From the NCBI GenBank assembly GCA_039189765.1, contig JBCCYL010000015.1:34505-98504 (forward strand): a DNA stretch of 64,000 bases, read 5' to 3'. A model generated the notes under the pieces. It saw only the letters and a program-made list of their open reading frames with translations, searched no databases and was not told where the DNA came from. The DNA comes from Cyanobacteria bacterium P01_F01_bin.150. Lineage in GTDB: Bacteria > Cyanobacteriota > Cyanobacteriia > CAKZMO01. How positions within the stretch are numbered: the stretch's first letter is position 1; the number at the start of each line of letters is the position of its first letter. A program made the position numbers and the translations under genes. This document shows positions 2,653-44,590 of the stretch, piece after piece.

Positions 2653-2686
2653 GCGGACTATTCATCAATCCACACAAGCATTTTGA

Positions 2687-2760
2687 GGGTTTCTAAGGCG
2701 AAATTAAATTAACGGTAGTGGGGCACGAAGCGCCCCCTCTACCTGCCCAAAGTTAACCCC
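2687..2760 (+). mobile_element. ~80-bp MITE-like repeat, copy A
   Basis: GGGTTTCTAAGGCGAAA...AACGGTAG-hairpin-CCCAAAGTTAACCCC, flanked by the direct repeat GCATTTTGA at 2678 and 2761. Confidence 0.8.
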
Positions 2761-3012
2761 GCATTTTGAGTGGGAAGGCATACGATAATTTTCTGCTCAT
2801 TTACAACATTGCCGAGCATTGTGTAATCTTGGCTCCGTCCCCCATTGTGCCCAGGGAAAACAAGGCCCTAATCAATATAACGATGTTGCACCATCTAACG
2901 CTTCCATTTCTCCACAACACGGAACTCGTTGGCGATCGCAAGTAGGTGATAAAAATCACTCACACACTTCATTCGATCTTCATCCAATTTGTCCACTCCT
3001 TACATGTATTTT

Positions 3013-3038
3013 TACTGAGTATCTTTAGATACTCAGTA
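3013..3038. promoter_or_regulatory. Palindromic operator-like site containing an NtcA-type GTA-N8-TAC core
   Basis: TACTGAGTATCT-tt-AGATACTCAGTA, 12-bp perfect arms, about 90 bp upstream of the ORF at 3128. Confidence 0.45.
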
Positions 3039-3127
3039 TAGTGGTTATTACTGGCATAGCGATAATGTGCTCCGGATTCTTTCTGAAGTGTAATCGCTAT
3101 CTTTGCGGTCTTTAAGGGGATAAACAC

Positions 3128-4381
3128 ATGGCATCTCGAGTAGTAAAGCAGCCTATTATCAGCAGAAATAGCCGCAAATATGATCCATGGGATTTAATGT
3201 TCAAAGAAGAGGCAGTTACTGACTCTGGAGTATACAACGCCCAAACGAAGATCTACGACACCTTCATTACTCTGGCAAAAACATGGGCATCGAATGATGT
3301 ACTCAGCCTTTTCCGGCAGGTTTTTATTCACTGTGTTGACTCCACCGAGAGCAATCTTACGCCAGCGCTTTATATTCTTCTACAAGCGGGGAATGAAGAG
3401 GACTTTCATTACACTCTCAACCGAGTGTGCTATATCCTTGTCAATAATTGGGAAACAGCTCGCGATCAAGATGCCATTATTGAACTAATTGATGTCCTGA
3501 CAATGGCCACAGACCTCAAGACAGGAAACTCGCCTAAACTAAGGAAATTGAGGAGGTGGGTAACTACCTTTTTGGAAAGTCAAGCATTTAGAGATCTCAA
3601 GCTCTATACCTCTCGGGAGACACAATCATCGCATTGGACTCACCGCTACACATCCTATTTGTTAACGGCTCAATCGCTTAATCAGAATAATCCTGATGAA
3701 CAACGCTTAGCTGCCAATATCGCCTCAAATGAAATGCGGCGTGAGTTCAAGCGTAATTTAGCCATGTACACGCTTCAGTCTGACAAATCTAATTACTCCA
3801 CTGACACTCTCAAAAATCCCACTTTGCTTGGAGAGCATGTCTTACCGCTAATCAGAAAAATCCTGACGAAAAAAGGAAAGTTTGGCTGCCAGGATGTGGC
3901 TAACATATTTCTAGCCCAGTCTAAAAACGCAAAGTTTAAGCATTTTAAGCGTGGACTGGCGGAGTATATCGTATTTGCAATAGGGTCTGAGGAAATAACA
4001 AAACTGTTGCAGACTCAGATATCCGAATATTTAGAGACCTTGTACACTCACTACGATAAGCGCCCTGTAGATGATGCCATTCTCCTCCGTACTGCCAATC
4101 AGATGATAGATTTTTTAATCATGAATCGGCGCGGAACTCCAGCACCCACCATGACTCTTCTGTTAAGTAAAGGCTATGCCCTCACTTTGGCAATTCTGCT
4201 GCTTAAGGTGATCATGATTAGTCCCAAATCCAGAAAATATTTGGAGGGTAAAATTGGCGATTTAGTGTCTTATTACGGCGAATTACCAGAAGGAGAATGC
4301 CAATGGCTGATCCAGTTCCTAGAGATTCTAAACGTCACTTTTACTATCTATTCAGATCGGGGTTCAACTTTAGGTGGGTAG
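3128..4381 (+). CDS. Hypothetical all-helical cyanobacterial protein; C-terminus replaced by a MITE insertion
   Basis: 417-aa ORF with an AAGGGGA RBS. The last codons (RGSTLGG*) are read from repeat copy B. Confidence 0.8.
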   Translation: MASRVVKQPIISRNSRKYDPWDLMFKEEAVTDSGVYNAQTKIYDTFITLAKTWASNDVLSLFRQVFIHCVDSTESNLTPALYILLQAGNEEDFHYTLNRVCYILVNNWETARDQDAIIELIDVLTMATDLKTGNSPKLRKLRRWVTTFLESQAFRDLKLYTSRETQSSHWTHRYTSYLLTAQSLNQNNPDEQRLAANIASNEMRREFKRNLAMYTLQSDKSNYSTDTLKNPTLLGEHVLPLIRKILTKKGKFGCQDVANIFLAQSKNAKFKHFKRGLAEYIVFAIGSEEITKLLQTQISEYLETLYTHYDKRPVDDAILLRTANQMIDFLIMNRRGTPAPTMTLLLSKGYALTLAILLLKVIMISPKSRKYLEGKIGDLVSYYGELPEGECQWLIQFLEILNVTFTIYSDRGSTLGG

Positions 4382-4438
4382 TGGAGGCGCAATGTGCCCC
4401 CGCTACCGTTAATCTTGTTTCGCCTTAAAACGAAACCC
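4359..4438 (-). mobile_element. ~80-bp MITE-like repeat, copy B
   Basis: Reverse strand reads GGGTTTCGTTTTAAGGCGAAACAAGATTAACGGTAG...CTACCCACCTAAAGTTGAACCCC. Flanks are TATTCAGATC (4349) and TATGCAGATC (4439). Confidence 0.85.
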
Positions 4439-4496
4439 TATGCAGATCAAAATATAAGCCAGGAGCAAGTCAGAGTTTCTTCGTTGTTGTTTCCTG

Positions 4497-6614
4497 TTAA
4501 CGCTCCAAGCAATCTAGAATAAAGGCATATTCAAATGCCTGTTCCTTCAAGCGACCATAGCGACCAGAGGCACCACCATGCCCAGCATCCATGTTAGTTT
4601 TGAGCAGAAGCTGACGCTGATCCGTTTTAAGGTCTCGTAGCTTGGCAGTCCATTTGGCTGGTTCCCAATAAGAGACCCTAGGATCGTTTAATCCTGCGGT
4701 AATCAGCAGATGAGGATAGTCTTGAGCCTTGACATTATCGTAAGGAGAGTAGGACTTCATGTAGTCGTAGAATTCAGGCTGGTTTGGATTACCCCACTCA
4801 TCCCATTCCATTACAGATAGAGGCAGGGACGGGTCCAGAATTGTTGTCAATACATCTACGAAAGGAACTGCGGCGATCGCCCCCTTGAATAGTTCAGGCC
4901 GCATATTCAATACCGCCCCCATCAGCAAACCGCCTGCACTGCCCCCTGAAATAGTCAACTTTTCAGCACAGGTCCACTGCTGCTCAATTAAGTATTCTGC
5001 ACAAGCAATAAAATCAGTAAAAGTATTCTTTTTGTTGAGAAACTTACCATCTTCATACCACTTGCGCCCCATTTCGCCACCACCACGAATATGGGCGATC
5101 GCACACACGACTCCTCGGTCTAAGAGTGATAACCGCTGAGATCCAAAACTCACTGGATAAGGATATCCATAGGAGCCATAACCTGTTAAAAACAGGGGAG
5201 CTTGACCATTTCTCTCTAAGCCTTTCTTGTAAACAAGAGAGATGGGAATCGACGTACCGTCAGTCGCTGTTGCCATTAGCCATTCGCTTTGATAGTCGTC
5301 CCGGTCATATCCTCCCAAAACAGGAGTTTCCTTCTTTAATTCCCGCTCGTGGGTGACCATATCATAGTCAAATACCGATGATGGCGTGGTTAGAGAGGTG
5401 TAGGTAAAACGCAAATTAGTCGTATCAAACTCAGGCATGGCACCAGAGGACACCGAATAGGTTGGCTCCGGGAACGTCAACGGATGAGGGGATTGACGTT
5501 CATTTGCTGATGTTGGAATTCCCTGAATCTGAATAGTGGGCAAACCATTCTCGCGCTCGTAACGCACTAGGTAATCTCTAAAAACATCAATGCCTCTGAG
5601 CATTACATCTTCTCGATGGGGAATCACAGTTTGCCAGTGCTCTTTCCCTGGTTTTACAACACTTGTGGCCATTAACTTGAAGTTAATCGCATTTTCATTG
5701 GTCACAATAAAGAATCGATCGGTAGCTTCACCCGTAGCATTACCTGGGTGATGATAAACACCATACTCTATACCCGGAATTCGAGGCTGGATCAGTTGTA
5801 AGTCGTCCAAAGGAGAATCTGCCGAGAGAAAACGGACCTCTGAGGTAATCTTGCTATCAGCAGATAAGAAAATATAGGCGTTACTGCGAGTGCGCTCTAC
5901 ATATAAATAAAATCCATCATCCGACTCCTCGTAGAGCAGCACATCCGCTGCCGGATCTGTACCCAGTTCATGACGCCAACATTGAAAAGGGCGATGGGCC
6001 TGATCAATACGAACGTAAAACAGAGTGCGATTGTCATTGGCCCAAACCGCATCACTCACCTCTTCAATCAATTCTGGGAAACAGCTCCCTGTCGATAGAT
6101 CCTTAATTTGTAGGGTGTAGGATTCGGAACCGTTAGTATCAGTGGAATAGGCCAAGTACTGATGATTTGGACTAATCGTTGTTGTACCCAGGCTAAAGAA
6201 AGGATAGCCCTCAGCTAGCTGATTTTGATCCAACAATATTTCTTCTTCACTTTCCAAAATTTCTTTTTTACGACAGAAAATTCTGTACGCTTTACCCGTT
6301 TCGGTGCGGCTGTAGTAAAAGTAGGGGCCATGCCGGTAAGGTACGGAAAGATCGGTTTCTTGAATACGACCCAACATCTCCTGATAAAGTTGATCCTGTA
6401 ACTCCTTAGCATGGGCCATTTGCGCTTCGGTATAAGCGTTTTCAGCCTCCAAATACTCAATAACCTCAGGATTTTCCTTCTCCCTGATCCAATAGTAAGG
6501 ATCGGTGCGGCGATCGCTATGCGTCTCAAGAACCTTGGGGCGCTTAACAGCAACCGGATACTCTATAAGTGAAGCCGAAAGTGGAGATGATTGTGACGAT
6601 TCAGGATTACGCAT
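4497..6614 (-). CDS. ptrB: Oligopeptidase B (S9A prolyl oligopeptidase family)
   Basis: GGSAGG nucleophile motif, NDPRV Asp, GHGG His, HIRGGGEMG. Confidence 0.93.
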   Translation of the reverse strand: MRNPESSQSSPLSASLIEYPVAVKRPKVLETHSDRRTDPYYWIREKENPEVIEYLEAENAYTEAQMAHAKELQDQLYQEMLGRIQETDLSVPYRHGPYFYYSRTETGKAYRIFCRKKEILESEEEILLDQNQLAEGYPFFSLGTTTISPNHQYLAYSTDTNGSESYTLQIKDLSTGSCFPELIEEVSDAVWANDNRTLFYVRIDQAHRPFQCWRHELGTDPAADVLLYEESDDGFYLYVERTRSNAYIFLSADSKITSEVRFLSADSPLDDLQLIQPRIPGIEYGVYHHPGNATGEATDRFFIVTNENAINFKLMATSVVKPGKEHWQTVIPHREDVMLRGIDVFRDYLVRYERENGLPTIQIQGIPTSANERQSPHPLTFPEPTYSVSSGAMPEFDTTNLRFTYTSLTTPSSVFDYDMVTHERELKKETPVLGGYDRDDYQSEWLMATATDGTSIPISLVYKKGLERNGQAPLFLTGYGSYGYPYPVSFGSQRLSLLDRGVVCAIAHIRGGGEMGRKWYEDGKFLNKKNTFTDFIACAEYLIEQQWTCAEKLTISGGSAGGLLMGAVLNMRPELFKGAIAAVPFVDVLTTILDPSLPLSVMEWDEWGNPNQPEFYDYMKSYSPYDNVKAQDYPHLLITAGLNDPRVSYWEPAKWTAKLRDLKTDQRQLLLKTNMDAGHGGASGRYGRLKEQAFEYAFILDCLER

Positions 6615-6886
6615 GAAATGGCAAAAGACTACAATTAGCTATGGATAACATGGGGCCTATAGCATTAGCCTAGAGTCAATCACCCGGCTCTAGCAATAGG
6701 ATCACCTACATTTTTGAGAAATTAGATGAAATCTTCTCAAAGGCAAATAGAACAGGACACCATGCTCGTTATCACTCTTCGCTTTTATTAAGCTTTACCT
6801 TAGTTTAAAGCGCCGGTGACAAATGGTTTTATTGTCGAGAGAAAATCCGGTACAAATTTCTCAAGACTTTTCCTAAAGCTATGTTT

Positions 6887-7195
6887 CTAATTAGACGTTT
6901 GTGGCTTGACGGGTTCTCCATCCACTAACTCAATTTGTCCTGATTCACGCACACAAAATAATTTCCATCGTTGATTATTTACTTTTCCAGGAAGAAAACC
7001 CATAATCATCAGGTACTCTTCCTTTTCACCCCGTCTAACGCGGACCAGCAATTCACCATTGCGTTGACTAACAATCAACGCCTCTATTTCAAACTCGCCC
7101 TCCTGTTCCCAGGGCATTAAAATGCGCTCACCAGATGCTGGGTTGGTGCGCAAAATTGCACGAATATTTTCAGATTCAGGTTTGCGAGGAACCAT
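6887..7195 (-). CDS. Hypothetical protein
   Basis: 102-aa ATG-initiated ORF with protein-like composition, co-oriented with ptrB. Confidence 0.6.
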   Translation of the reverse strand: MVPRKPESENIRAILRTNPASGERILMPWEQEGEFEIEALIVSQRNGELLVRVRRGEKEEYLMIMGFLPGKVNNQRWKLFCVRESGQIELVDGEPVKPQTSN

Positions 7196-7382
7196 AATTT
7201 TGTCAAACGTTGTATTAAGAGGAGACTATTGCTCAGCAAAGAGTTATATCAATGCCATAGTGATACTATCACCTTGGGCAGAATTGGGAACGTGTTTCAC
7301 ACATCTTCAACGATTTAATTTTCAAAAGCCTTATCAAGCGAATTTTGTCCCAAATATATTAACGAAATCTTATAAATATGGT

Positions 7383-7703
7383 ATGAACACGACACTGATT
7401 GACCTATGTGGCTGGTTACCGGCCATTATTATCCCACTAGCAACAATTATTCAGCTCAGTGCAATCTTTCGAAATCGTTCCACCGCAGGCATTAGCGCTA
7501 TCACTTGGTTCCTATTTGGCATCGCCAACGTAGGATTATACATCTACACAGAAAAATATGGAGACATCCAAGCCATTGCTGGCCTACTTGGCTCAGCCCT
7601 ATTAGATTTTATTATTACTGGTTTGGCGATCGCCCAGTATGGCAGTCAATCACAAGAAAAAAAGGCAGAAGTGGACCAAGGTGACCCTGAATATCTAAGT
7701 TGA
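7383..7703 (+). CDS. Small 3-TM membrane protein, PQ-loop/SemiSWEET-like
   Basis: From MNTTLID: GWLPAIIIP..IQL...RSTAGISAITW, three hydrophobic helices. The upstream part of the tracked ORF overlaps the opposite gene and is probably non-coding. Confidence 0.7.
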   Translation: MNTTLIDLCGWLPAIIIPLATIIQLSAIFRNRSTAGISAITWFLFGIANVGLYIYTEKYGDIQAIAGLLGSALLDFIITGLAIAQYGSQSQEKKAEVDQGDPEYLS

Positions 7704-8348
7704 TGCCACTTTACTGGCACTGATTTGACTTCTTAAAACTGATGCCCGCTCTGTGATCAGTGCCCAATTCTCTTTGTCCAGAAGAGGCTTGGGGAATAGG
7801 TGACTGGACAATCCCACCGCGATCGCTCCTGCCTTCAGAAACTCCAGGGCATTGTGAGTCGTAATCCCCCCTGTAGGAATTAAGGGAATATGACCAAGAG
7901 GTCCTCGCAAGCAGTTCAAATAGCTTGTTCCCCCCATCGTTTTAATGGGAAATACTTTTACGCAAGCGGCCCCTGCCTGCCATGCGGTAACAATTTCTGT
8001 CGGCGATAGTGCGCCAGGTACCATTGGGACCTGTTGGGCATAGGACAAGCGAATCAGGACTTCACTAGTATGGGGACTAAATGCAAATTTAGCGCCTGCA
8101 TCAATGGCAGCTTGCAGATCCGCTGGCGTCAGAATGGTCCCGGTACCGATAATACAGTCAGGATAATCCTCCACCAGGGTGCGAATTAAATTCGCTGCGT
8201 TACCACTGTTCCAGGTAATTTCAATCAGCCCCATGCCAGCTTCTATCACCGCCTGGGCCATCTTAAGCGCAATAGTGGCGTCATGGGAACGGACAACAGC
8301 AATTGCCCGATGGGTCTCTAGTAAACGAAGCCATTCCTCTGGAGTCAT
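7695..8348 (-). CDS. eda: KDPG/KHG aldolase
   Basis: IEIT, IGTGT, SPTEI, VKVFP, PTGGI motifs. Confidence 0.9.
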   Translation of the reverse strand: MTPEEWLRLLETHRAIAVVRSHDATIALKMAQAVIEAGMGLIEITWNSGNAANLIRTLVEDYPDCIIGTGTILTPADLQAAIDAGAKFAFSPHTSEVLIRLSYAQQVPMVPGALSPTEIVTAWQAGAACVKVFPIKTMGGTSYLNCLRGPLGHIPLIPTGGITTHNALEFLKAGAIAVGLSSHLFPKPLLDKENWALITERASVLRSQISASKVAST

Positions 8349-8511
8349 AGGGTATGGTCTACAGGAGTTATTGTCTAACCGATCCCCAATATTTGTATAT
8401 CAACATTGGGCAAATGATATGAACGCGAATGCTCACATCATCGTTAATTTTGATTTGCCCTAAAACAAGGCCTCAATATTCTAGCTTTTAGCCTTAACTC
8501 TGGGCTTGATT

Positions 8512-9825
8512 TTAGCGTTGATTCCAGGATTGTTCAGCATCTGCTAACGCATCATCAACAGACTTTTGGCCCAACATAGCAGCTTGAAGATTTTCATAGA
8601 TGATCTTTTGTAGCTGCTTCACGTCTTCCATGGCAGGAATTAGCACCTCAGCTTGCTCCATCTGTCCGGCGCTCACCAAGCGTGCTTTATCCCCCGGTGA
8701 GGCATCGCTGACCTCAAGCGTAAAATAATCATCTGTAAGAGCGGTTTGAGTTGAGGGCAATACATTGGCTTCTTTAGCAAAAGACAATTGATTGACATCA
8801 TTTGTCACGTACAGTGCAAAGTCCAGGGCCGCATCAGGGACATCGGTTCCTCTGGGAATCACCACATTCATGGCCGCCACATTCATCGCCCCAGTTTGCC
8901 CGGTGATTTGAGGTGCCGTTGATGATACTTCAGCAATGGATGGGGCATTCTTGGCGATCGCATCCAAAAAATGAGGGCTGGATGACACCATCGCAATTTC
9001 ACCAGCCTGATAAAGCTCTATCCCTCGGCGATGTCCCTGGGTCAACACATCCCTTGGAATCAGCTCATTTTGATACAAATCCACCCAATATTGAAATGCC
9101 GCCTTACCTTCCTGGGTATTAAACGCCGCCTTGCCCTGATCATCCACCAATGTCACATCCATCTTTACCAGCGATTGCAAAATATCCGCCGCATCGTCAG
9201 CCACAAAAGTTATAAAAAAGGCATATTTCCCGGTGGTATCTTTTACCTTTTTAGCAGCGATAGCCAATTCAGCAAACGTGGATGGCGGCTCATCAACTTG
9301 GGCTTGCCCAAAGAGCTCTTCGTTATAAATGGTGACACTCGCCGTGAGATACCAAGGTAAGCCAAAACTCTCACCGTTGAGGGTATTGGACTGCCAGATT
9401 TTGGGTAAATAGGTCTGCTTATCTACATCCGATACCTGATTGTCCAAAGTAAGCCATGCGTTACGGCTAGCAAGCTGTGAAGCAAAATCAGGGTTCAAAT
9501 TCACCACATCAGGAGCCGTTCCCGCAGATACAGAGGTCAGAATTTTGCTTTGCATATCTCCCCAAGGGACATCTACCCAGCGAACGCTCGTGTCAGGATT
9601 TTGGCTCTCAAAATCAGCAATCAGCTCATTGAAGTAGTCTGTAAAATCGGGCTGGAGCTGCATTGTCCAGAAGACGACTTCTTGGGTTGCACTTGCATCT
9701 GAACCCGAGTCTGCGTTCTCTTGAGATGACGATTGTCCACAGCCTGAGGTCGTCAGAGCGATCGCCAACCCTACGCTCAAGGCCACATTCCAATGCTGAC
9801 TTAATCTAGTCAATCGGTGCTCCAT
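8512..9825 (-). CDS. Sugar ABC transporter substrate-binding lipoprotein
   Basis: Lipobox (TSGC), AGTAPDVV, LPWY..IYN motifs of SBP_bac_1. Confidence 0.88.
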   Translation of the reverse strand: MEHRLTRLSQHWNVALSVGLAIALTTSGCGQSSSQENADSGSDASATQEVVFWTMQLQPDFTDYFNELIADFESQNPDTSVRWVDVPWGDMQSKILTSVSAGTAPDVVNLNPDFASQLASRNAWLTLDNQVSDVDKQTYLPKIWQSNTLNGESFGLPWYLTASVTIYNEELFGQAQVDEPPSTFAELAIAAKKVKDTTGKYAFFITFVADDAADILQSLVKMDVTLVDDQGKAAFNTQEGKAAFQYWVDLYQNELIPRDVLTQGHRRGIELYQAGEIAMVSSSPHFLDAIAKNAPSIAEVSSTAPQITGQTGAMNVAAMNVVIPRGTDVPDAALDFALYVTNDVNQLSFAKEANVLPSTQTALTDDYFTLEVSDASPGDKARLVSAGQMEQAEVLIPAMEDVKQLQKIIYENLQAAMLGQKSVDDALADAEQSWNQR

Positions 9826-9987
9826 ACGCCCTCCTCCTAAGACTATTTCTGTCGTGTATCAACCCTAACTGGATAGTGAGGGAATCGCCTACGCTAGTAT
9901 TAGCGTTGTTTCTCCTCAAAACCATTTCGCCTCAAACCTGAACCCACCCTGTCGGACAGTGTACGTTAAATTGAGTTCTATAAAAAC

Positions 9988-10032
9988 TTAGAGGGTGAGA
10001 GCTTGAGACCTGCTCAACTCCTCACCCTCTAA
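9988..10032 (-). terminator. Hairpin, probable rpsF terminator
   Basis: TTAGAGGGTGAG...CTCACCCTCTAA arms with A/T runs, 64 bp after the rpsF stop. Confidence 0.6.
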
Positions 10033-10095
10033 AAATGATGTCCAACTTAACCAACGTTAATTCATCACATCAGCTAATTTTCCCCCAAAAAAATC

Positions 10096-10440
10096 CTAGC
10101 TAGGGCGTTCACTGACAACTTCCTCAACGGTCGGCTCTTCAGCATCATTGGAAGATAATTCTTGCTTAATGGTCAAGTAACGAATAACATCCTCACTCAA
10201 ACGCATGGCACGCTCCATGGCCTTAACCGCATCGCCGGGACTTTGATAATTCATTTGAATATAAACCCCTTCACGATAGCGCTGAATTTCATAAGCAAGT
10301 CGGCGTCTACCCCGATGTTGAGTTTCAATATCAGCAGCACCATTATCAATTAATAATGTCTGATATTTGGTAATCGCCTGATCAGTCTGCTCTTCGCCCA
10401 TGTCAGGACGAAGAATATACATCGTTTCGTAAGCCTGCAT
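10096..10440 (-). CDS. rpsF: 30S ribosomal protein S6
   Basis: [34 protein letters not shown] precedes MQAYE. Confidence 0.96.
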
Positions 10441-10449
10441 TAAATTAGT

Positions 10450-10563
10450 ACTCCTTCTGGACAAATGGCCCCTATGGAATCAACAGTTATCGCCAACAGC
10501 TCGTATACGAGTGATGCTGGAGCACCATGTACAAGCTGCTTAGCGTCTAACTAGAGGCAAGGA
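10450..10563 (-). promoter_or_regulatory. S6:S18-type ribosomal protein leader RNA
   Basis: Minus strand reads UCCUUGCCUCUA...UAGGGGCCAUUUGUCCAGAAGGAG. An anti-SD UCCU can pair with the RBS, plus an inner stem and CC, as in rpsF leaders. Confidence 0.65.
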
Positions 10564-10905
10564 TCTAATATCATATACCAAGAAGAAGGCCTTTTACTTG
10601 CCAACACTTGGACTTCGCCCTCATCAATGGCTTCAAAAGCAGTTCGCATCTCTAACGGAATAGCCTAAAGTAGATAAGTCTTATGATTTTTATACATTCT
10701 TGGCTTATCATTAAAATGCTAATAAATAATAAAAAATAAATGATTCCGTTGACTCTCCACAATGCCTTGCTTGAGGCTAAACAATAGAGTGAACTTTATA
10801 AGATGTGGCGGGAAAGGTGGGGTATGGTAGAGCGTATGACTTCGTTCCTGACACACTCACTCATACAGGTCTTTATCATCCTTACAGAAGAAGCAAATAA
10901 TAGCT

Positions 10906-11748: not shown

Positions 11749-11791
11749 AGCATTAGCTCTAATCAAATCCACAATAATGACATATGTTGCC

Positions 11792-12728: not shown

Positions 12729-12808
12729 GGGTTTCGTTTTAAGGCGAAACAAAATCAACGTTAGTGGGGACGCTCCATGTACCCACTAACAGCCTAAAGT
12801 TGATACCC
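12729..12808 (+). mobile_element. ~80-bp MITE-like repeat, copy C
   Basis: GGGTTTCGTTTTAAGGCGAAACAAAATCAACG...CCTAAAGTTGATACCC, with direct repeat CATTTTAGG at 12721 and 12808. Confidence 0.85.
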
Positions 12809-21552: not shown

Positions 21553-22773
21553 TCAATTTGACTGCAGTAATGCCTGTAACCGCTGGCGAAACATCGCTTG
21601 CCCAAAGGTCGCGATCGCCTCCTCCCGCAACCATTTCCCATTACATCGTTGATCATTTCCTAGGAGTACCTCAATACAGGCATCAGCAACTGCTTGAGAG
21701 TTGCGATGGGGCACCTGCCAGCCAACTCGTCCATCCTGTAATGGGTCAGAAGAACCGTCGGCATCTCCAGACACAACAGGAATCCCACACGCCATTGCTT
21801 CCAAGTAAACAATGCCAAATCCTTCTTGGGATGGCATCACATAGGCATCTGCCAGTCGATAATGGTCTCGCAGTTCTGCCACTGGTACAAATCCAGCAAA
21901 AATCACCTGCCCCTCAACTCCTAGGTCCTTTGCCAATTTTGCTAAACGGGGCTGATCGTCTCCCCGACCAATAACAAGATACCGAATATTGGGAATCCTT
22001 TCTCGGATGGCAGGCAACGCCCTAATCGTAACATCGACCCCTTTATAAATATCGCCTGACCACAGACGAGCAACCGTGACCATGAGTTTAGAATCTGGAG
22101 AAATAGAGTAGCGATCGAGAAGTTGTGGGTTCTTCGGACCGGGAGTGAAGTAGGCCTCATCAATCGCGCAGGGTAAAAACTTTAGCCGTTCAAAGGGAAT
22201 TTGGTTGAATTGACAGAGGCAGTCGCCAGTATATCGGCTGATAGTCCAAATCGAATCAGCCTGTTGTAAAGCATTTTTATAGGATGGCTCTAATTCACGC
22301 CAAACTTCTTTGCCGTAGGTCAACACCGTGTAGGGAACATCAAACCAACGACACAGCCGTTGTACAAGGGGAGTAAGCAAAATATGTCCACAGTACACTC
22401 GCTCCGGACGCTGGCGTAGCAGATAGAGAAACAGGGCGATGGCAAATTTAATCCGTCCCAAGACAGGAAAATCAGACTGAAAATAATGAAAGGTAAATTT
22501 AGAAGGTTGGGAAGATTGAAACGGGTTCTCACAGTCGGAGCGATCGCGCAGTAAAAATACATCTGCCTGCAACGGTTGATCGTTCCGATCAGCGTCTATG
22601 TGTTTATAGGCATAAAAGATATCCTTGATGTAGGACTGAATTCCTCCCTCCTGGGAAAAGATTTCTAAGCATAGCAACAGAATTGAAGGTGCAGCATCAT
22701 CTTGGGATTGCAAAGACGAAGAATTTTCAGTTGGGCTAGAGGATTTTTCCAGAGGTACGTAAGCCATAGTCAT
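21553..22773 (-). CDS. Glycosyltransferase family 4
   Basis: GGIQSY, YKGVD, EGFGIVYLEAMACGIPVV. Confidence 0.92.
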   Translation of the reverse strand: MTMAYVPLEKSSSPTENSSSLQSQDDAAPSILLLCLEIFSQEGGIQSYIKDIFYAYKHIDADRNDQPLQADVFLLRDRSDCENPFQSSQPSKFTFHYFQSDFPVLGRIKFAIALFLYLLRQRPERVYCGHILLTPLVQRLCRWFDVPYTVLTYGKEVWRELEPSYKNALQQADSIWTISRYTGDCLCQFNQIPFERLKFLPCAIDEAYFTPGPKNPQLLDRYSISPDSKLMVTVARLWSGDIYKGVDVTIRALPAIRERIPNIRYLVIGRGDDQPRLAKLAKDLGVEGQVIFAGFVPVAELRDHYRLADAYVMPSQEGFGIVYLEAMACGIPVVSGDADGSSDPLQDGRVGWQVPHRNSQAVADACIEVLLGNDQRCNGKWLREEAIATFGQAMFRQRLQALLQSN

Positions 22774-22802: not shown

Positions 22803-22882
22803 GGGTTTCGTTTTAAGGCGAAACAGAATGGACAGTGGTGTGGGCGCGACGCACCCACACCACCGACCTAAAGGTGATACCC
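22803..22882 (+). mobile_element. ~80-bp MITE-like repeat, copy D
   Basis: GGGTTTCGTTTTAAGGCGAAACAG...CCTAAAGGTGATACCC, with degenerate flanks AGCGTTAG / ATCGCTAG. Confidence 0.8.
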
Positions 22883-23632: not shown

Positions 23633-23712
23633 GGGTCTCGCTCTAAAGTGAAACAGAATTAGCGGCCACGTAGGCGGATCGCACTCAAACGACCCGCCTA
23701 AATTGAATGCCC
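23633..23712 (+). mobile_element. Degenerate MITE-like repeat, copy E (petB-petD spacer)
   Basis: GGGTCTCGCTCTAAAGTGAAACAGAATTAGCGG...CCCGCCTAAATTGAATGCCC. Same length and layout as the family; no target duplication left. Confidence 0.65.
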
Positions 23713-26142: not shown

Positions 26143-26148
26143 CTCATA

Positions 26149-26221
26149 TACCCCCAGGGGAATTCGAATCCCCGTCGCCTCCGTGAAAGGGAGGTGTCCT
26201 AGGCCTCTAGACGATGGGGGC
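26149..26221 (-). tRNA. trnE: tRNA-Glu (TTC)
   Basis: Reverse complement GCCCCCATCGTCTAGAGGCCTAGGACACCTCCCTTTCACGGAGGCGACGGGGATTCGAATTCCCCTGGGGGTA folds as a cloverleaf with anticodon TTC. CCA is not encoded. Confidence 0.97.
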
Positions 26222-27235: not shown

Positions 27236-27314
27236 GGGTCTCGTTTTAAGACGAAACAAAATCAACGGTATTGTGGGCGCGGAGCGCCCACAATACCCAC
27301 CTAAAGTTGATCCC
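27236..27314 (+). mobile_element. ~80-bp MITE-like repeat, copy F
   Basis: GGGTCTCGTTTTAAGACGAAACAAAATCAACGGTATTGTGGGCGC-GGA-GCGCCCACAATACCCACCTAAAGTTGATCCC, with exact flanking repeat GTTCCGCA. Confidence 0.87.
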
Positions 27315-35457: not shown

Positions 35458-35563
35458 CTCATTCCCAGCGGGACGCTGGGAATGCTATCAAGAGACTCTG
35501 GCTATTGATGATCTTGGAACCAGAGTCTCCAATGGGGGTTCCAAGCCAAAGGCTGGGAACCAG
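35458..35563. repeat. Three-hairpin REP-like element
   Basis: CATTCCCAGCG/CGCTGGGAATG, GAGACTCTGG/CCAGAGTCTC and GTTCCAAGCC/GGCTGGGAAC between convergent gcvP and leuB. Confidence 0.7.
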
Positions 35564-35598
35564 ATGGAATGTTGACAGGGTCATCCAGGCTCTTTGCA

Positions 35599-36690: not shown

Positions 36691-36798
36691 ATTCAAATAA
36701 AGCCTCAGATGGCTGCAGAGATAGGTGTAATCGTTGCGACCCGTATTTTATCTCAAAACGTTTTATCCCCAAATTGGTTGATGGCTGGGGCGCAGACA

Positions 36799-37101
36799 CT
36801 ATCCCATAAATTGAATGTTTGGCAAGAGCGGATCACGCACAAGACCAATGCCGTCGAATTTCCATCGTTCCATAATGCTCTTAAGCTGTGGTTGGGTAAC
36901 AGATTCCACAGCAAAATTCTTGGCTAAGTCAGGGGCGTGGGCATTCAAGTAGCTCAGTCCGTCAGCATAGTCTTGAAACATAATTAGATAACCTGGATTT
37001 ATCTGTGGCGAAGACTTACCAGGAGATTGAGTTCTGGGTCGAGCAACCAAATAACTGCCATCTTGCCGCGATCGCAGCAAATAATGAATATTTGTCAACA
37101 T
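36799..37101 (-). CDS. Hypothetical cyanobacterial protein
   Basis: YLLRSRQDGSYLVA...LSYLNAHAPD...ERWKFDGIGLVRDPL; start chosen at MLTN. Confidence 0.75.
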   Translation of the reverse strand: MLTNIHYLLRSRQDGSYLVARPRTQSPGKSSPQINPGYLIMFQDYADGLSYLNAHAPDLAKNFAVESVTQPQLKSIMERWKFDGIGLVRDPLLPNIQFMG

Positions 37102-37378
37102 AGGGCAGAGACTGAAGAATACAGACTTTAGACAGTAGTCTTTAATATATATTGTAGAACTAACCAAGAAACACTCAACCTGGGTGTTTTTTATCTGTAA
37201 AAAAAGGTGATCAATTCTTCAATTCTGATCTAAGCTGGATATGCTAGTCAGCTCCCATAGACGCTTTGTAATCCACAGGTGCTTAACTGGCGACATATCT
37301 TTGTCTTTTAGCCTGTGCATTTGAAAGGTTCTGTTGGGTATTCTATACATCAAGGAGCTGGGTGGTTCGTTCGCCTGA

Positions 37379-38314
<936 letters not shown>

Positions 38315-38364
38315 GTTAGCCTCTACAGGGCAAATTCTAGTCATCTATCTAAGACTCTATTCAT

Positions 38365-39435
38365 TTATTTAGATGCTGCTTTAACTGTCACCGAATTTTC
38401 AAGCATACTTTGAGACTCCAGATGATGATAGTCAGACACTGTCATTGGATGTTTTGCCTGACTGGTTAATGTAGGGCCGCTCTGAATAAAAGGCTGAGTA
38501 GGGTGCGTGGAAGTTTGTGGCCTTGATAGAGCCACATCCGGTGGTCTAAAGATAGGGACATAGCTTCGCCACATCGCCTCTACTTCTCCACGCTCCAGTC
38601 GAAATGCCTGACCTAACGCAGGGTCGGCAACCACTACTGTATCGTGATCCATTTCTAACAAAGCCAGGGCATGGGGTAGACGGCGATCGCCATTATCTAC
38701 CCATACTGATAGCACACCTGGCCGATTAATTTGCTGTATGGTTTGCCATGACGGCTCTAAGTCCAAACCATCCATTCCTAATTGCCGAGCAGCAAAAATC
38801 AGATGGGGTATTGATGTACCTAATCGGCTCGTTTGAGCAAGTTTGGCAATTTCTGCCTCAGAACTATAAATATTCCACTGCTTCAGAACCGTCGCTAATG
38901 CGGCTGGTGCACAGCTACTCGCTGATGTTTGTTGAACGACATTATGAATTGATGAAGTACGGTCCAGCGAGGGATAAATGGGGGCCATCAAATGGCTCTC
39001 TAGCCCCCAAAATCCAACAAACCCAATAGCCCCAATAAAAGCGATCGCCACAACTTGTTTGCGTGACGTTCGCCAACACAACCCAATCGCGACACCACAG
39101 GCGCTTAGTAACAATGAACGCATCAACAAGCCAGAGGCATTAAGTCCTCGTATTCTCCATAGTAGAGGCCAAATTCTAAGATGGGGACCATGAAGTAATA
39201 TGATAGCCAGAAAGACATAAACTGCCAGCATCACCAGAGACCAGGGAACCCTAGATCGCGACTTATGTCGTCCCTGACATACCATCAGGATCCAAAATCC
39301 AACACTTAGTCCTAGCAGCAGGCATACAGCGCTAAAGATAAGATTGGCCACAATATCTGTCAAAATATAGATACTCCAGAATCTCGTATGGCACGAAGCA
39401 TAAAGCCATCGAGTTCTCTGCAACAAAAACATCAA
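38365..39435 (-). CDS. Membrane-anchored C39-like cysteine peptidase (no ABC domain)
   Basis: About 4 N-terminal TM helices, then QQTSASSCAPAAL (Gln/Cys), LPHAL (His) and VADPA (Asp). Confidence 0.78.
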   Translation of the reverse strand: MMFLLQRTRWLYASCHTRFWSIYILTDIVANLIFSAVCLLLGLSVGFWILMVCQGRHKSRSRVPWSLVMLAVYVFLAIILLHGPHLRIWPLLWRIRGLNASGLLMRSLLLSACGVAIGLCWRTSRKQVVAIAFIGAIGFVGFWGLESHLMAPIYPSLDRTSSIHNVVQQTSASSCAPAALATVLKQWNIYSSEAEIAKLAQTSRLGTSIPHLIFAARQLGMDGLDLEPSWQTIQQINRPGVLSVWVDNGDRRLPHALALLEMDHDTVVVADPALGQAFRLERGEVEAMWRSYVPIFRPPDVALSRPQTSTHPTQPFIQSGPTLTSQAKHPMTVSDYHHLESQSMLENSVTVKAASK

Positions 39436-39900
39436 GGGCTAGATGGCCTTTGGGTAAGCCTTTATCCTTTTCCCATCAGAAATACAAGATCCGCCTTAAA
39501 GTGAATCAAGTCGAAAGATGCTCTTGGTTTAAGCATCCATACCACTTGCCTAAATTTAAGGGCCTAAATGCTTGATCTCCAAGTGTGATTGACTAACTCA
39601 GCCACATAAGTAGCCAAGTCACGCATAAAACTTAGTTACTATTACTGAACATTGTTTCAATAAACATGACACGTAAAATAAAGATTTGGTAAAGCAACCG
39701 TAATATCTCGTTGTTTGTAGCTGGTTTTAGGGCACCAAGTTAGCAATTAACGATTTGATTGTTAAAAGATGTGGGACAATTCCCGATATTGCATCAGTGA
39801 AAAAAGTAGTTGAAGTTAGGGCTTACCGCTTCACTACATATATAGTTCAGTTTGTAATAGAACGAATTGAAAGCCTTTGGGGATAGAGCGTACGTAAAGG

Positions 39901-41400
39901 GTGTTCTTTGAAATGAGTAGAGGATTTTTGCGGGCTTTCAGAAAAGCCGGTATAGTATCAGGTGTTTCGGCTGCGTTACTGGGGATACTTGCCTTGTCGA
40001 CTCAGGGCGTCACGTTAAGTAAAGAGCCTCAGCAAGACTGGAATAACAAAGCTTTCAGGGTGGCTCAAGGGCCATTATCTTACGAGGAACTAGACTTTGA
40101 AATTTCTTTACTTCCCTCTTTGGAAAGTGACCTTTCTATTGGTCCCATCTTTTCTGAACTACAATTCTTACCCGATTTATTTTTACCCCGATATCCCTCT
40201 TTCAATAGCCAACTTTTAGATCAGCAGCTCATCCTATATTCTATTCACATGTTTCTGGTAGGTCCGCCAGATGTACTGATTGTAGGTAGTTCTAGGGCCA
40301 TACAAGGTGTTGATCCAAAGACTTTAAGGCAATCCCTGATAAACCAAGGCCATGGTGAACTAGATATTTATAATTTCAGTATCAATGGAGCAACCGCTCA
40401 AGTCATCGAGCTTCTGTTGCGAGAAATTTTGACTCCGGATCAACTCCCTAAACTGGTCATTTGGGCCGACGGTTCCCGTGCATTCAACAGCGGTCGTCCC
40501 GATCGAACTTACCTACAAATTGCTCAGTCAGACGGGTTTAAGCAGCTTGAAAATGGAATGCACCCTATTTTGGTTCATCCAACTGAGGCGATTGCCCAAG
40601 CTAACTGCCAAGATTATTTAGATCCTCAATTCGGCTATCGGCAGTCATCCTTGATAGAACTAGGGGAGGAATCATCTTTTATTTCAGCATCTAATGTGTC
40701 AATGTTGACACAAGGCGATGCAGACACGTTTGGTCAAATGAAATCAACGTTTGATCCCTACATCTCAGTTGCAACGGGAACCTGCCCTGCCCCTTCACCG
40801 TCTTCAAATTTCTACTCTGAGACAAAAGCAATATTAAGTTCTCCTTTCCAAAATGTACCTTCAAATATTTTGGAAACGGATCAATATCCTACAACTGAAT
40901 TCGTAACCTATTCCTCTGCTTCAAGTGACAGTTCCATTGCCTCCTTACAGGATTTAGCCTCTCGTTTACCCTTCGAGTTAGAAGTGAATGGCTTTTTACC
41001 CAATTCAACTGAGTTTGATCCATCTTCCTATTACCAACGATTCCCCCATGTTGCTGGAGAATATGACGCAAATTATGTTCCATTTGAACTCCATGGAGTT
41101 CAAACAGAAGCAACTCAACGTTTAGCCCAATCTATGCAAAATAAACAAATTCCCCTAGTGTTTGTGAACCTACCGTTGACTCTAGACTATTTGGATGAGA
41201 CTCGGCTTGATTACGAGGCTCAATTCCTTCAGCATATGGCTCAAGTTTCTCAACAGTCTAGGTTTACATTTGTCAATCTCAATCAAGTGGATTTAGCTAA
41301 AAATCAATACTTTGCTGATCCAAGTCACCTAAATGAACAAGGTGCTCGTGCCGTTGCCAAAGCTATTGCTCAACAAAATAGTATTTCCTGGCCTCGTTAG
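39901..41400 (+). CDS. SGNH-like protein (DUF1574-like)
   Basis: VLIVGSSRA, NFSINGAT, FADPSHLN..GA. Confidence 0.72.
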   Translation: MFFEMSRGFLRAFRKAGIVSGVSAALLGILALSTQGVTLSKEPQQDWNNKAFRVAQGPLSYEELDFEISLLPSLESDLSIGPIFSELQFLPDLFLPRYPSFNSQLLDQQLILYSIHMFLVGPPDVLIVGSSRAIQGVDPKTLRQSLINQGHGELDIYNFSINGATAQVIELLLREILTPDQLPKLVIWADGSRAFNSGRPDRTYLQIAQSDGFKQLENGMHPILVHPTEAIAQANCQDYLDPQFGYRQSSLIELGEESSFISASNVSMLTQGDADTFGQMKSTFDPYISVATGTCPAPSPSSNFYSETKAILSSPFQNVPSNILETDQYPTTEFVTYSSASSDSSIASLQDLASRLPFELEVNGFLPNSTEFDPSSYYQRFPHVAGEYDANYVPFELHGVQTEATQRLAQSMQNKQIPLVFVNLPLTLDYLDETRLDYEAQFLQHMAQVSQQSRFTFVNLNQVDLAKNQYFADPSHLNEQGARAVAKAIAQQNSISWPR

Positions 41401-41684
41401 TCTCAATGCCCAAAGGATGCAAGATAATCAAACGACAGACTGTTGTTTCTTAAGCAACAATTATCTTTAAATGGATAGTCTCCTAGATAGTCCCCAGCTT
41501 GATGTCACATCACCGCATAAACTCTAAAGTAAAGCTAATTATGAAAAGTTGATGAACTTAAAACGCCATATTAATTGCCTTAGATGTCTGAAGCTAGCAT
41601 GGCATAAAGCTAGTCAATTTTTTAAGCGCAGTAGCCTTACCCTCTGTTATTCAGTGGGCTAGAAGGAAGTTATTAAATATTAGG

Positions 41685-41957
41685 ATGCATCTTTTATCAG
41701 TTATGGTTTATATTGCTGAGTTTGCGGTACTGGGAACAATGGAGCTTGCAGATGAAATTTTAATCTGCTCAGACTCTAAAGAAGATGCTCATTTATTCGC
41801 CCTTCACTATGCATCAAATTGGGGAGTTGACTTGCATTCATTACGAGTGGCAACGGACCAATATATTAAAGCTGCAAAAAATTATAAATACTCGATTCCG
41901 AAGCAATTGAAAACGCCTCAAAGTACTTTTCATCGATTGTCTAGATTACCTGCTTAG
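41685..41957 (+). CDS. Hypothetical protein
   Basis: 90-aa ORF in otherwise empty space with protein-like composition. Confidence 0.5.
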   Translation: MHLLSVMVYIAEFAVLGTMELADEILICSDSKEDAHLFALHYASNWGVDLHSLRVATDQYIKAAKNYKYSIPKQLKTPQSTFHRLSRLPA

Positions 41958-42153
41958 CAATTATCAGACAATCGAAATTAGTGCAGGTAAAAGGACTATG
42001 TGTTTCAGCGATTGCTTGATGCTAATCCTCAATAACGAACAGCAATTAACACGACTTGACAAAGTTCACGGGTGAATAAGCTTATTGAGGTTTTCAACTA
42101 AAAGATTGGTACTGGATAAAGCAACCCAGTACCCTATTCCTGAGAGGTGCTCA

Positions 42154-43269
42154 CTACCCTCGCTTATAAAAAGGACGTTTTACGACCATAGCGGGATAAA
42201 GCTTTCCTCTAATTTCAACATCTAAGGATTGCCCAATAGAAGACACTTCCGTTGAAACATAAGCCAAAGCAATCGCATCTCCTAGAGTTGGAGATTGGGT
42301 TCCACTGGTGACAATCCCTACAGGCTGTCCCTTATACAGAAGCGGATAGTCATGGCGGGCAATGCCCCTAGCCTGCATTTTTAACCCTACCAGCGCTTTG
42401 GTTATGCCTTCTTTTTTCTGCTGTTCTAACACTGAGCGTCCAATGAAATTGCCTTTGCGATCCAGATGCACTAGCCAGCCGAGACGTGCTTCTAATGGCG
42501 TTGTACTGTCATCAATATCCTGACCATAAAGTGCCATTGCTGCCTCTAAGCGAAGGGTATCCCGTGCCCCCAAGCCACAAGGGATCACTCCAGCATCCAA
42601 GAGCGATCGCCATAATTCTTTACCAGTCGCAGGGTCTAGCATAATTTCCACCCCGTCTTCTCCGGTATATCCAGTACGGGCAACAAATGCCAAGGATCCC
42701 AGCAGATTAACGGTACTGTGACCAAACCGAGGAATTAGCTCTATTGTTTCATCAGGAATAAGGGTCTGAAGGATAGCGATCGCCTTTGGGCCTTGAATCG
42801 CAATTAGCACCTCTTCCTGGGACACATCATCAAACTGAATCCCCGTGAGGTGCCTTTTAAGCCACTCCCGATCCTTAACCGTCGTGGCAGCATTTACGAT
42901 CAACACTACTTGCTCAAGCCCATCGTTTGTGGGTTCTTGAAGATAGACAATCAGATCATCAATAATGCCGCCATTCTCATTAAGTAAAACGGTATATTGG
43001 GCAGCACCGGGTTTCAACTGGCTTAGATCAGTAGGTACTAGCGCTTGTAGCTTTTCAAGCACATCTGTTCCAAGCAATAGAAACTTACCCATATGGGAAA
43101 TATCAAACATTCCAGCACGTTCACGAACCGCTTGGTGCTCGGGTCGAATACCTTGGTATTGCACAGGCATTTCCCACCCCGAAAAAGGAACCATGCGAGC
43201 GGATTGTTCTTTATGGAGATCATAGAGGGGGGTACGGAAAAGAGCTTGTTCCGCTGCGACATCACTCAT
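42154..43269 (-). CDS. gcvT: Glycine cleavage system aminomethyltransferase T
   Basis: RTPLY, FSGWEMPVQY, FDISHMG, RTGYTGEDG, GLGARDTLRLEA. Confidence 0.97.
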   Translation of the reverse strand: MSDVAAEQALFRTPLYDLHKEQSARMVPFSGWEMPVQYQGIRPEHQAVRERAGMFDISHMGKFLLLGTDVLEKLQALVPTDLSQLKPGAAQYTVLLNENGGIIDDLIVYLQEPTNDGLEQVVLIVNAATTVKDREWLKRHLTGIQFDDVSQEEVLIAIQGPKAIAILQTLIPDETIELIPRFGHSTVNLLGSLAFVARTGYTGEDGVEIMLDPATGKELWRSLLDAGVIPCGLGARDTLRLEAAMALYGQDIDDSTTPLEARLGWLVHLDRKGNFIGRSVLEQQKKEGITKALVGLKMQARGIARHDYPLLYKGQPVGIVTSGTQSPTLGDAIALAYVSTEVSSIGQSLDVEIRGKLYPAMVVKRPFYKRG

Positions 43270-43581
43270 AATGGCTTCGAGTCACTTTAGATATGTGTTT
43301 TTTCTGTCTTCCATCCTGCCAGATTTAGGCTGATGGGTAAAGTTTATACATACCCATCATAATTATTGTAATTGTTGTCACATTTGCATTGGATAGACTA
43401 TTTTGGGGGATTTATTTTAAGCAGAAAATTTTGGTACATATTGCCTCAGTTGTCCGTAATATTGTTCAGAGCAAAAGTAAAACTTTATTTCCATAATTAC
43501 ACTTTAATGCAAGACAAAATCAGCGATAGTTGGAAACACGGAACGCTCCCATTACAGCCTAAAGCTATTATCCCGTTTTTG

Positions 43582-43659
43582 GGGTATCAACTTTAGGCGG
43601 GTCGTGTGAACGCGATACACTCACTATCGTTTATTTTGTTTTGCATTAAAATGGAACCC
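43582..43659 (-). mobile_element. ~80-bp MITE-like repeat, copy G
   Basis: Plus strand GGGTATCAACTTTAGGCGG...TTAAAATGGAACCC, with exact flanking repeat CGTTTTTG. Confidence 0.8.
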
Positions 43660-43758
43660 CGTTTTTGTGTGGAAAAAATTGGGATAACTGAAAATAGCAT
43701 TGTTATTTAGCTGAATAGTACATAATAACTTTGCGTATTCAGTAGATTAGGGAATACT

Positions 43759-44496
43759 ATGACCTACTCACTACGAGTGGTGGATATGCCCACCAGTGAA
43801 AGGCCTCGGGAACGGCTGTTAGAAAAGGGGGCTAAAAGTTTATCCAATGCAGAATTACTAGCGTTGTTATTAGGAACAGGGCAAGGTGCTGGCAAACTGT
43901 CAGCGGTGGGCTTAGGCCATCATATTCTCAAAACATTGAGTGAACATGAACGGGACCCGCTTGATATTTTACGCAGCGTCAGTGCTCAAGAACTCATGGA
44001 GATTCCGGGCATCGGCAAAGCTAAAGCGACAGCTATTCTTGCGGCCATCGAATTGGGCAAGCGCGTATTATATACACAGCCACAGGATAGAGTAGTCATT
44101 GATGATCCAGCGATCGCCGCCGCCTATTTGAGCAACGATTTAATGTGGCAACCTCAGGAAAGATTTGCCGTATTGCTGCTGGATGTAAAACACCGGGTCA
44201 TCGGTCGCCAAATTGTTAGCATTGGCACTGCGACGGAAACGTTAGCCCATCCCCGTGATATTTTCCGAGAAGCCATTCGTCAAGGAGCGACCCGCCTTAT
44301 CGTGGCCCATAATCATCCCTCTGGTAATGTGGAACCCAGCGGCGAGGATATTACATTGACTAAACAGTTACTGGTAGGTGCTGAAGTTTTAGGCATTCCC
44401 GTATTGGATCACCTTATTCTCGGCAATGGGAACCATGCCAGCATCCGGCAACTTACTACCCTATGGCAGGATATAAACCACGAGAATTCTGCTTAA
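43759..44496 (+). CDS. radC: RadC/JAB-domain protein (UPF0758)
   Basis: RPRERLL..GA..LS.AELLA, HhH GIGKAKA, HPRDIF, AHNHPSG..S.ED, LDHLI. Confidence 0.93.
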
Positions 44497-44528
44497 TATC
44501 GTCAGCGCCGTAATTCAAGAATACAGTT

Positions 44529-44590
44529 GGCATCAATAACGGTGGAGCATTCCTCTACCGTTAATTTTGTTTCATCGCAAAACGCAACCC
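44529..44590 (-). mobile_element. Shortened/degenerate MITE-like repeat, copy H
   Basis: Reverse strand GGGTTGCGTTTTGCGATGAAACAAAATTAACGGTAGAG-GAATG-CTCCACCGTTATTGATGCC. Confidence 0.6.

Follow-up and report, generated by a model that had tools for sequence, protein, structure and literature searches.

A 64,000-nucleotide stretch of DNA from Cyanobacteria bacterium P01_F01_bin.150 (positions 34505-98504 of contig C15, JBCCYL010000015.1, in assembly GCA_039189765.1, here called G000), hereafter the window, carries repeated copies of an 80-bp element, F1, which appears to be a new family of transposable elements of the miniature inverted-repeat kind (MITEs). The assembly comprises 10.64 Mb in 350 contigs at 45% G+C, and the octamer GCGATCGC, typical of cyanobacteria, is present in it. 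Throughout this genome F1 has inserted at several hundred sites, mostly intergenic and AT-rich, and 8 bp of the target were duplicated each time.

Copies of F1 in the window

The 18-nucleotide (nt) left-end motif of F1 matched the window four times with up to three mismatches, against 0.08 matches from shuffled sequence, and the 18-nt right-end motif matched six times against 0.02; the right-end match at 22171 is probably due to chance. The initial annotation of this DNA had counted at least eight copies in both orientations, and the window indeed contains seven copies that are complete or nearly so, besides a short diverged one and a few in decay. Six of the seven are full length (78-80 nt). 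The copy at 27236-27314 (+; 79 nt) has a perfect hairpin and a predicted DNA fold of -22 kcal/mol (z -7.1), and the 8 bp that border it on the left and on the right, GTTCCGCA, agree exactly. The copy at 43582-43659 (-), which was read directly and found by profile search, has a decayed hairpin, and its 8-bp flanks are again identical (CAAAAACG when read in the orientation of the element). At 4359-4438 (-; 80 nt, profile positions 1-80, E 4.7e-21) the flanking repeat is 10 nt with one mismatch, and a 417-amino acid (aa) open reading frame (ORF) at 3128-4381 (+) ends 22 nt into the copy, which supplies its last codons and stop. The copy at 12729-12808 (+; 80 nt, E 6.6e-19) has the target duplication CATTTTAG(G), the length of which is ambiguous (8-9 nt) owing to an overlap of the target with the end of the element. 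In the near-full copy at 2687-2760 (+; 74 nt, profile positions 1-77, E 5.8e-13) the left end has an internal deletion, and a 9-nt repeat, GCATTTTGA, lies at 2678-2686 and 2761-2769. Flanking repeats had been proposed for five copies, and they are visible in these five. The remaining two full-length copies, both of 80 nt and both read directly as well as found by profile search, are at 22803-22882 (+), where the duplication has decayed to 6 of 8 bases, and at 23633-23712 (+), an old copy with 71% identity to the consensus and no recognisable duplication.

The short relative at 44529-44590 (-; about 62 nt) combines the left end with another small hairpin, its right end is degenerate, and it falls below the nhmmer threshold. 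A decayed copy was found at 8398-8471 (-; profile positions 3-77, E 1.4e-6), and a partial one with the hairpin and right end at 63879-63933 (+; profile positions 23-77, E 0.001). Weak F1-like remnants occur at 9856-9922 (-; profile search, E 0.009) and at 43500-43570 (+; E 0.0023), the second adjoining the 43582 copy. The window also holds, at 48634-48712 (-; E 8.3e-16), one copy of a sister family, F2, an 81-bp family built on the same plan.

Genomic abundance, target duplication and structure

An nhmmer profile made from seven window copies gave 597 matches at E<=1e-3 across the whole assembly, 211 of them full length and 99 of these exactly 80 nt, the modal length. The element is too short for a gene and has no coding capacity, as its first description as very small and, in content, non-autonomous had it. 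A second profile, from 210 full copies, located 770 non-overlapping F1 loci (706 at E<=1e-3 and 608 at E<=1e-5), in both orientations and with both ends present in 414; the earlier expectation of hundreds of copies in the genome is thereby borne out, and the majority consensus of the 210 copies agrees with the one proposed from the window.

Flanking repeats were scored against the number obtained by re-pairing the left flank of one copy with the right flank of another. With borders fixed, the flanks were alike at 6 or more of 8 bases in 93/210 copies (2.0 expected), and in a larger set of full copies the count was 152/339 (3.8 expected), so that the repeats are well above chance and mobility stands on this point. 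Flank-to-flank identity was 0.50-0.64 over a run of exactly eight positions, and in the four positions to each side of that run it was 0.14-0.31; the target-site duplication of F1 is 8 bp. The duplication of 8-10 bp first put forward is thus a true one with too wide a length, save in a small minority of 9-10 bp (7/210 copies with at least 8/10 matches, 0.2 expected) to which the 4359 copy belongs. The duplicated octamers vary between sites and have an AT fraction of 0.66, compared with 0.58 for non-ORF DNA. Since a variable sequence is duplicated at each site, the repeat is the mark of an insertion and not a conserved site. The median identity to the F1 consensus was 0.84 (range 0.58-0.96). 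Copies with a perfect duplication are a little younger, with a mean of 0.833 compared with 0.805 for those with 5/8 or fewer flank matches. The identity of nearest neighbours was at least 95% in 22/231 copies and at least 97.5% in 12/231. The majority of F1 copies are old, with a small number of fairly recent ones, in keeping with the different ages ascribed to them at the outset.

F1 copies start with GGGTTTCG.. on the left and finish with ..GTTGATACCC on the right. The two ends had been described as an imperfect 18-bp inverted repeat, and in the majority consensus they are identical at 13/18 positions. The left end, GGGTTTCGTTTTAAGGCGAAAC, is a small hairpin by itself (GTTTCG / CGAAAC). It is followed by a conserved unpaired stretch ending ..ATTAACGG, then by a central GC-rich hairpin of 15 bp with a loop of 1-3 nt, and last by the right end, ..CCTAAAGTTGATACCC. 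Good copies treated as single-stranded DNA have fold energies of -17 to -22 kcal/mol (z -4 to -7); the decayed copies at 43582 and 4359 fold no better than shuffles. Variants of F1 with other interiors exist.

The central hairpin was analysed in 196 copies of exactly 80 nt. Fourteen of its 15 pairs were Watson-Crick in 126-182 copies, and the loop-closing pair in 86. Individual pairs changed on both sides: pair 35-59 was AT in 114 copies, GC in 47 and CG in 11; pair 39-55 was TA in 114 and GC in 68; and pair 36-58 was GC in 128, AT in 34 and TA in 14. The pairing is preserved through compensatory changes. Loop triplets and their reverse complements were about equally common, both among the frequent ones (GAC 45 and GTC 32, GAA 17 and TTC 13, AAC 17 and GTT 15) and among the rarer ones (ATC 8 and GAT 6, TCC 7 and GGA 5), and the loop therefore flips while the arms remain paired. 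Palindromes undergo arm-to-arm correction and loop inversion. Loop flipping in F1 is consistent with these processes, which require no function and are compatible with one, and we read the hairpin as a passenger whose palindrome is kept perfect by intramolecular arm-to-arm correction and loop inversion. Small inversions in chloroplast non-coding DNA likewise leave the loop between perfect inverted arms facing either way; unlike F1, this is a mutational habit of any palindrome and not a family of mobile elements.

The hairpins raise three alternatives to the transposition of F1 as a whole by a DDE enzyme. One is a composite, in which a minitransposon of about 50 bp would carry a separately mobile palindrome, similar to repetitive extragenic palindromic (REP) sequences or to the small dispersed repeats (SDRs) of Nostoc, that spreads on its own, for example by a REP-associated tyrosine transposase (RAYT) or through an RNA intermediate. 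The ends are alike in F1 and F2 and from genome to genome but the hairpin is not, and the variants with other interiors also fit such an arrangement. The hairpin arm starts GGTAG.., which recalls the GTAG-tagged REPs reported in cyanobacteria (PMC3733652). Against this, the hairpin core GGGCGC-N3-GCGCCC occurs at 136 of its 141 sites inside F1 or F2 loci and at only 5 outside them, these five coming from a different small palindrome, and the 210-copy consensus has no duplication flanking the hairpin within the element. The nested-REP idea is rejected because the core is almost never found alone, and we regard the composite as improbable. The five outside sites form a third small palindrome, TTTTTGTGGGGGCGC-N3-GCGCCCCCACAAAAA, which has no MITE ends.

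A second alternative is a single-strand mechanism that recognises hairpins, of the IS200/IS605 type or REPIN-like, in which no DDE enzyme takes part. It would accord with hairpins that lie at or adjoin the ends and with a left-end hairpin that is kept with different stem sequences between genomes. IS200/IS605 elements, however, make no target duplication and insert beside a fixed short motif, and the 8-bp duplication of variable sequence around F1 leaves this mechanism barely credible.

The third alternative is a functional structured element under selection, such as a terminator, an mRNA stabiliser or a regulatory RNA or DNA site, with flanking repeats that are incidental. Strong conserved two-hairpin folds (DNA-fold z of -4 to -10 in good copies) and the compensatory changes in the stem are what such a function would predict, and the position of copies relative to genes bears on it directly. 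On a crude map of the longest non-overlapping ORFs of at least 100 aa, which covers 83% of the genome, 13 of the 414 two-ended copies were fully inside an ORF and 43 overlapped an ORF end. Copies placed between two ORFs numbered 368: 146 in divergent, 183 in tandem and 39 in convergent gaps, which account for 31%, 54% and 15% of the summed intergenic length, respectively. The enrichment between divergent genes and depletion between convergent ones is the opposite of terminator placement, and the terminator reading is rejected on this ground. The over-representation between divergent genes also means that copies may touch promoters. In tandem gaps 109 copies had the same orientation as the genes and 74 the opposite one, a slight bias that speaks for a function, although both orientations do occur. 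No Rfam family covers any F1 copy within the window, syntenic loci in congeners lack a copy, and the duplication of a variable sequence at each site marks insertion. Selection for function is thus a very improbable explanation of the family, and individual F1 copies may nevertheless have been co-opted.

Several other observations were made on these sequences. Many G000 contigs (e.g., C41, C182, C247, C2, C145, C14 and C134) stop inside the GC hairpin of a MITE and trail into poly-G/poly-C and low-complexity sequence, which has the look of an artefact that the hairpin produced during sequencing or assembly. At G000:C64:41821-42780 a 960-bp IS1-family element (PF03400) interrupts the central hairpin of a MITE copy and is bordered by an 8-bp duplication, TGGGCGCT; the 9 nt with which its inverted repeat starts, GGTAGTGTG, are also those with which the MITE hairpin arm starts, and this agreement may be chance or end-like targeting. 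Within the window, the sole Rfam match is a tRNA gene at 26149-26221 (-), where the summed contig word depth is about five times that of the surroundings in one sequencing run. Three tandem 30-nt units, 70-100% alike, are found at 58806-58895 (+), inside or beside a long ORF at 56262-59165, and if read in frame each would specify a lysine-rich decapeptide.

Sister family and distribution among genomes

F2 is 81 bp long, with ends that start GGCTTGTATTTTAAGGCG (GGCTTG..) and GGCTTAAAACTTAAGCC (GGCTTAA..) and a central GC hairpin of its own. It occupies 264 loci of the assembly that do not overlap F1 (210 at E<=1e-5), and its 8-bp duplication was matched in 60/130 copies against 2.0 expected. 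The pattern GG.T......TT.AG.CG is common to all four ends of F1 and F2, and one enzyme could serve both families.

Outside the source genome the distribution is patchy. A BLAST search with one copy was positive in 4/31 relatives (E<=0.001), each of them a member of the same genus, in 3/17 genomes of the order at E<=1e-4 and in 3/401 genomes of the class at E<=1e-4, where two candidates per genome were scored. First-look candidate counts among the relatives were 277 in G001, 6 in G002 and 4 in G003. The near-complete genome G022, which is distant and of another family, had 134 candidates and carries a homologous 81-bp family with about 75% identity over the full length; its 221 end motifs compare with none for a reversed control. 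An internal motif common to both groups, sought with up to two mismatches in the 401 genomes, occurred 151 times in G000, 121 in G022, 65 in G001 and 17 in G011, and at most five times in every other genome (controls 0-2). When 40 copies drawn from six genomes were aligned, the same plan was kept throughout, and the ends were the best conserved columns. G011 and G022 belong to different families and have a nearly identical consensus. Their copies carry 8-bp duplications and the same two hairpins (z -8 to -10), with different stem sequences; in the alignment their stems lie one column away from those of the G000 group. The patchy spread, together with near-identity across families, suggests horizontal movement.

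Other collections were searched as well. Of 80 loci read at matches to the right-end 16-mer in a public species collection, 41 hold 80-bp copies, all in the metagenome-assembled genome records of Cyanothece sp. SIO2G6, and the remainder are chance 16-mer matches; one solo end in that collection adjoins an aminotransferase gene. Plasmids gave no BLAST match to F1, and all five matches to the 18-mer in JGI metagenomes were due to chance. Among sequencing runs, one DNA run, possibly of the source sample, carried F1, and no RNA run was listed. In G022, contig C4 contains a unit of about 2.2 kb resembling an insertion sequence (locus L140, 202-2432), with a 411-aa ORF. The inverted ends of this unit are 58 nt long, 90% complementary and contain CAGGGTAATCGC.. 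Its left part harbours a MITE copy, and G022 contigs C5 and C6 start with the same left part.

Mobilisation of F1 and its place among known elements

F1 is very probably a MITE that is non-autonomous and depends for its movement on a DDE transposase acting in trans, with target cuts staggered by 8 bp. A transposase of the DDE type, encoded elsewhere, would bind both F1 ends, cut the target with a stagger of 8 bp and join the element in, and gap repair at the insertion site would then produce the 8-bp duplication. Such an enzyme may be in G000 in an unassembled state, may have been lost, or may be of an unrecognised kind.

Several results weigh against this interpretation. The search proposed in the initial annotation, for a transposase gene bounded by the same 18-bp ends, found no such element in the G000 assembly, and mobilisation in trans is for that reason something that we infer. 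Pairs of end motifs with up to 4-5 mismatches were sought at distances of 0.14-8 kb, both with an 8-bp duplication and irrespective of one. Among like ends separated by 0.2-8 kb, the only pair to have the duplication, at 6 kb, is likely a chance one, and the pairs without it enclose ordinary genes, such as that of a WD40 protein in pairs of 1.5-2 kb. No interior sequence is common to the 126 half-copies, and when 700 contig ends were clustered, the best likeness to an F1 end among the repeats listed was 10/18. The insertion sequences resident in the genome, taken up below, resemble F1 ends no further than the first GG or GGGT. As most copies are old, with a median identity of 84% to the consensus, present-day activity is not demonstrated. 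An empty site precise to the base was likewise not obtained in congeners, the intergenic DNA of which is too diverged for reliable alignment. Flanks with a paralogue were found for 1/566 elements: the filled site G000:C207:894-973 and C172:16960-16970 are 87-89% alike, 9 nt (AAAAACATG) replace the element in the second, and the filled copy has no duplication.

The same comparisons gave a partial answer on site occupancy. Genes of three congeners are 67-80% identical to those of the window, and at 12 syntenic loci from these genomes, including the 12729 and 4359 regions, no copy was found at nhmmer E<=1. Occupancy therefore differs between species, and the proposed alignment of orthologous loci led this far, short of an empty site with a single target. 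Logan contigs of one DNA run, which drop rare variants, contained no empty allele and only joints between copies, a result that weighs in neither direction.

The wider search for an autonomous partner was also negative. The self-BLAST repeat families of G000 included no parent element, and a scan of this genome for units of 0.6-4 kb with an exact 8-bp duplication and inverted ends identical at 14/18 or more positions returned ten candidates, all of them with ends unlike those of F1. Nor was an autonomous partner present among the loci read from G001, G011 and G022. Pairing of half-copies gave two pairs, one of them an IS1 inserted into a copy and the other two separate copies. A multi-copy end, GGCACTGGTTCAG.., has a 12-13-nt block in common with the right end of F1; its one internal remnant adjoins a gene of 446 aa that is ordinary and matches nothing in Pfam, its interior is not assembled in G000, and the end was not found in G001, G011 or G022. 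It was rejected as a trace of the partner. Another multi-copy insertion-sequence end, GGCACTGGTTCAGTCAA.TTAAAGCC.., lies at G000 contig ends C39, C66, C147, C148, C165 and C346, again with the interior not assembled, and was not found in G001, G002, G003, G004, G011 or G022. Because the assembly is fragmented, with 350 contigs, collapsed repeats and 307/700 contig ends that finish in repeats, the partner may be unassembled.

Transposase families were examined with the profiles PF12762, PF01610, PF00872 and NF033572. The resident elements whose ends were compared with F1, namely ISL3, ISKra4-like, IS256, IS1 and IS66, are ones that make 8-bp duplications. The families named as candidates in the initial annotation did not hold up in G000: IS1595 (PF12762) had no match in this genome, which is 99% complete, and the IS256, ISKra4-like and ISL3 copies do not have F1 ends. 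The ISL3 copies of G000 and G022 make an 8-bp duplication, as F1 does. Their ends, GGTTCTTCGGGACC.. and GGCTCTCTTGAAG.. (GGCTCTCTGGGAATG.. in G022), diverge from those of F1 after the first two or three bases. ISL3 matches numbered 51 in G022, 7 in G000 and 5 in G001, which are rich in copies, and none in four copy-poor genomes; this co-occurrence across seven genomes is a mere correlation and only a lead. The ISMich2 subgroup of ISKra4 has 8-bp repeats and GGG ends. The resident ISKra4-like element starts GGGTGTAA.. on both sides and has only GGGT-T in common with F1, and no F1-like ends were found near the ISKra4 genes of G001, G022 and G004. The inverted repeat of the IS256 copy on C82 (..GGTGTCT..GTTTTCGCCA) is not collinear with the F1 ends, and the ends of the resident 960-bp IS1 and 1789-bp IS66 are unlike them. 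In a rough ranking of mobilising enzymes, one of another or unrecognised kind has about an even chance; an ISL3-like enzyme is possible and somewhat doubtful, one like ISKra4/ISMich2 rather unlikely, and one like IS256 more unlikely still.

A broader proposal, which is speculative and which we think unlikely, is that the 80-81-bp two-hairpin elements of G000, the sister family and the near-identical families of G011 and G022 form one horizontally spreading superfamily. Its transposase would fall outside the annotated types of insertion sequence, as an unrecognised enzyme or a chromosomal, domesticated one, and would use the left-end hairpin and the unpaired ACAA.ATTAACGG stretch as its recognition features.

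In its size, lack of coding capacity, terminal inverted repeats, duplication of fixed length and variable sequence, and dispersed intergenic copies, F1 has the properties of a MITE, and it appears to be a new family within that known class, set apart from the described ones by their descriptions. The cyanobacterial MITEs listed in the review PMC3184786 (Nezha, Muzha, the Anabaena MITE and MaeMITE) span 130-435 bp. Like F1, Nezha of Anabaena variabilis and Nostoc sp. (Zhou et al. 2008, as reviewed in PMC3184786) is cyanobacterial and non-coding. It too has inverted repeats at its termini, direct repeats around it and a predicted fold that is stable, and the genomes that carry it lack its partner insertion sequence, just as none was found for F1; unlike F1, it measures about 130-170 bp and has ends in common with ISNpu3. 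The same review gives 150-435 bp for MaeMITE of Microcystis, about 154 bp for Muzha and about 224 bp for the Anabaena MITE of Wolk et al., elements of the same phylum that are roughly 2-5 times longer than F1. The F1 end motifs were not found in the literature searched on cyanobacterial MITEs. Neither there nor in Rfam did F1 match a named family, a result that leaves ISfinder aside and agrees with the initial annotation, where none was recognised.

More distant systems resemble F1 in part. Correia elements duplicate TA, whereas F1 duplicates 8 bp. The Correia/NEMIS elements of Neisseria, RUP and ERIC are, like F1, high in copy number, intergenic and foldable with inverted ends, and differ from it in host, in length (about 100-157 bp) and in their ends (PMC3184786, PMC3733652). 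REP and REPIN sequences with their RAYT are also short GC-rich palindromes present in high copy between genes; REPs have neither a target duplication nor outer inverted repeats (PMC3116915, PMC3733652), and F1 has both. Membership of F1 in the REP/REPIN group was rejected, given its duplication and the occurrence of the hairpin core in MITEs at 136/141 sites. In Nostoc punctiforme, Elhai et al. are said to have described in 2008 SDRs of 21-27 nt that have a hairpin in common, show compensatory changes, lie sometimes inside minitransposons and are thought to move via RNA. Compared by description, the mobile unit in F1 is instead the whole 80 bp with its 8-bp duplication, and the hairpin core hardly ever occurs solo; F1 could yet be identical with one of those minitransposons.

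F1 and F2 together occupy about 1,000 loci (770 and 264) in one genome of 10.6 Mb. A 2024 census by another method lists at most 468 conserved MITEs in any genome (PMC11602168). If the missing transposase is of an unrecognised kind, the F1 family would be a ready-made substrate on which to test it; otherwise F1 is ordinary selfish DNA.

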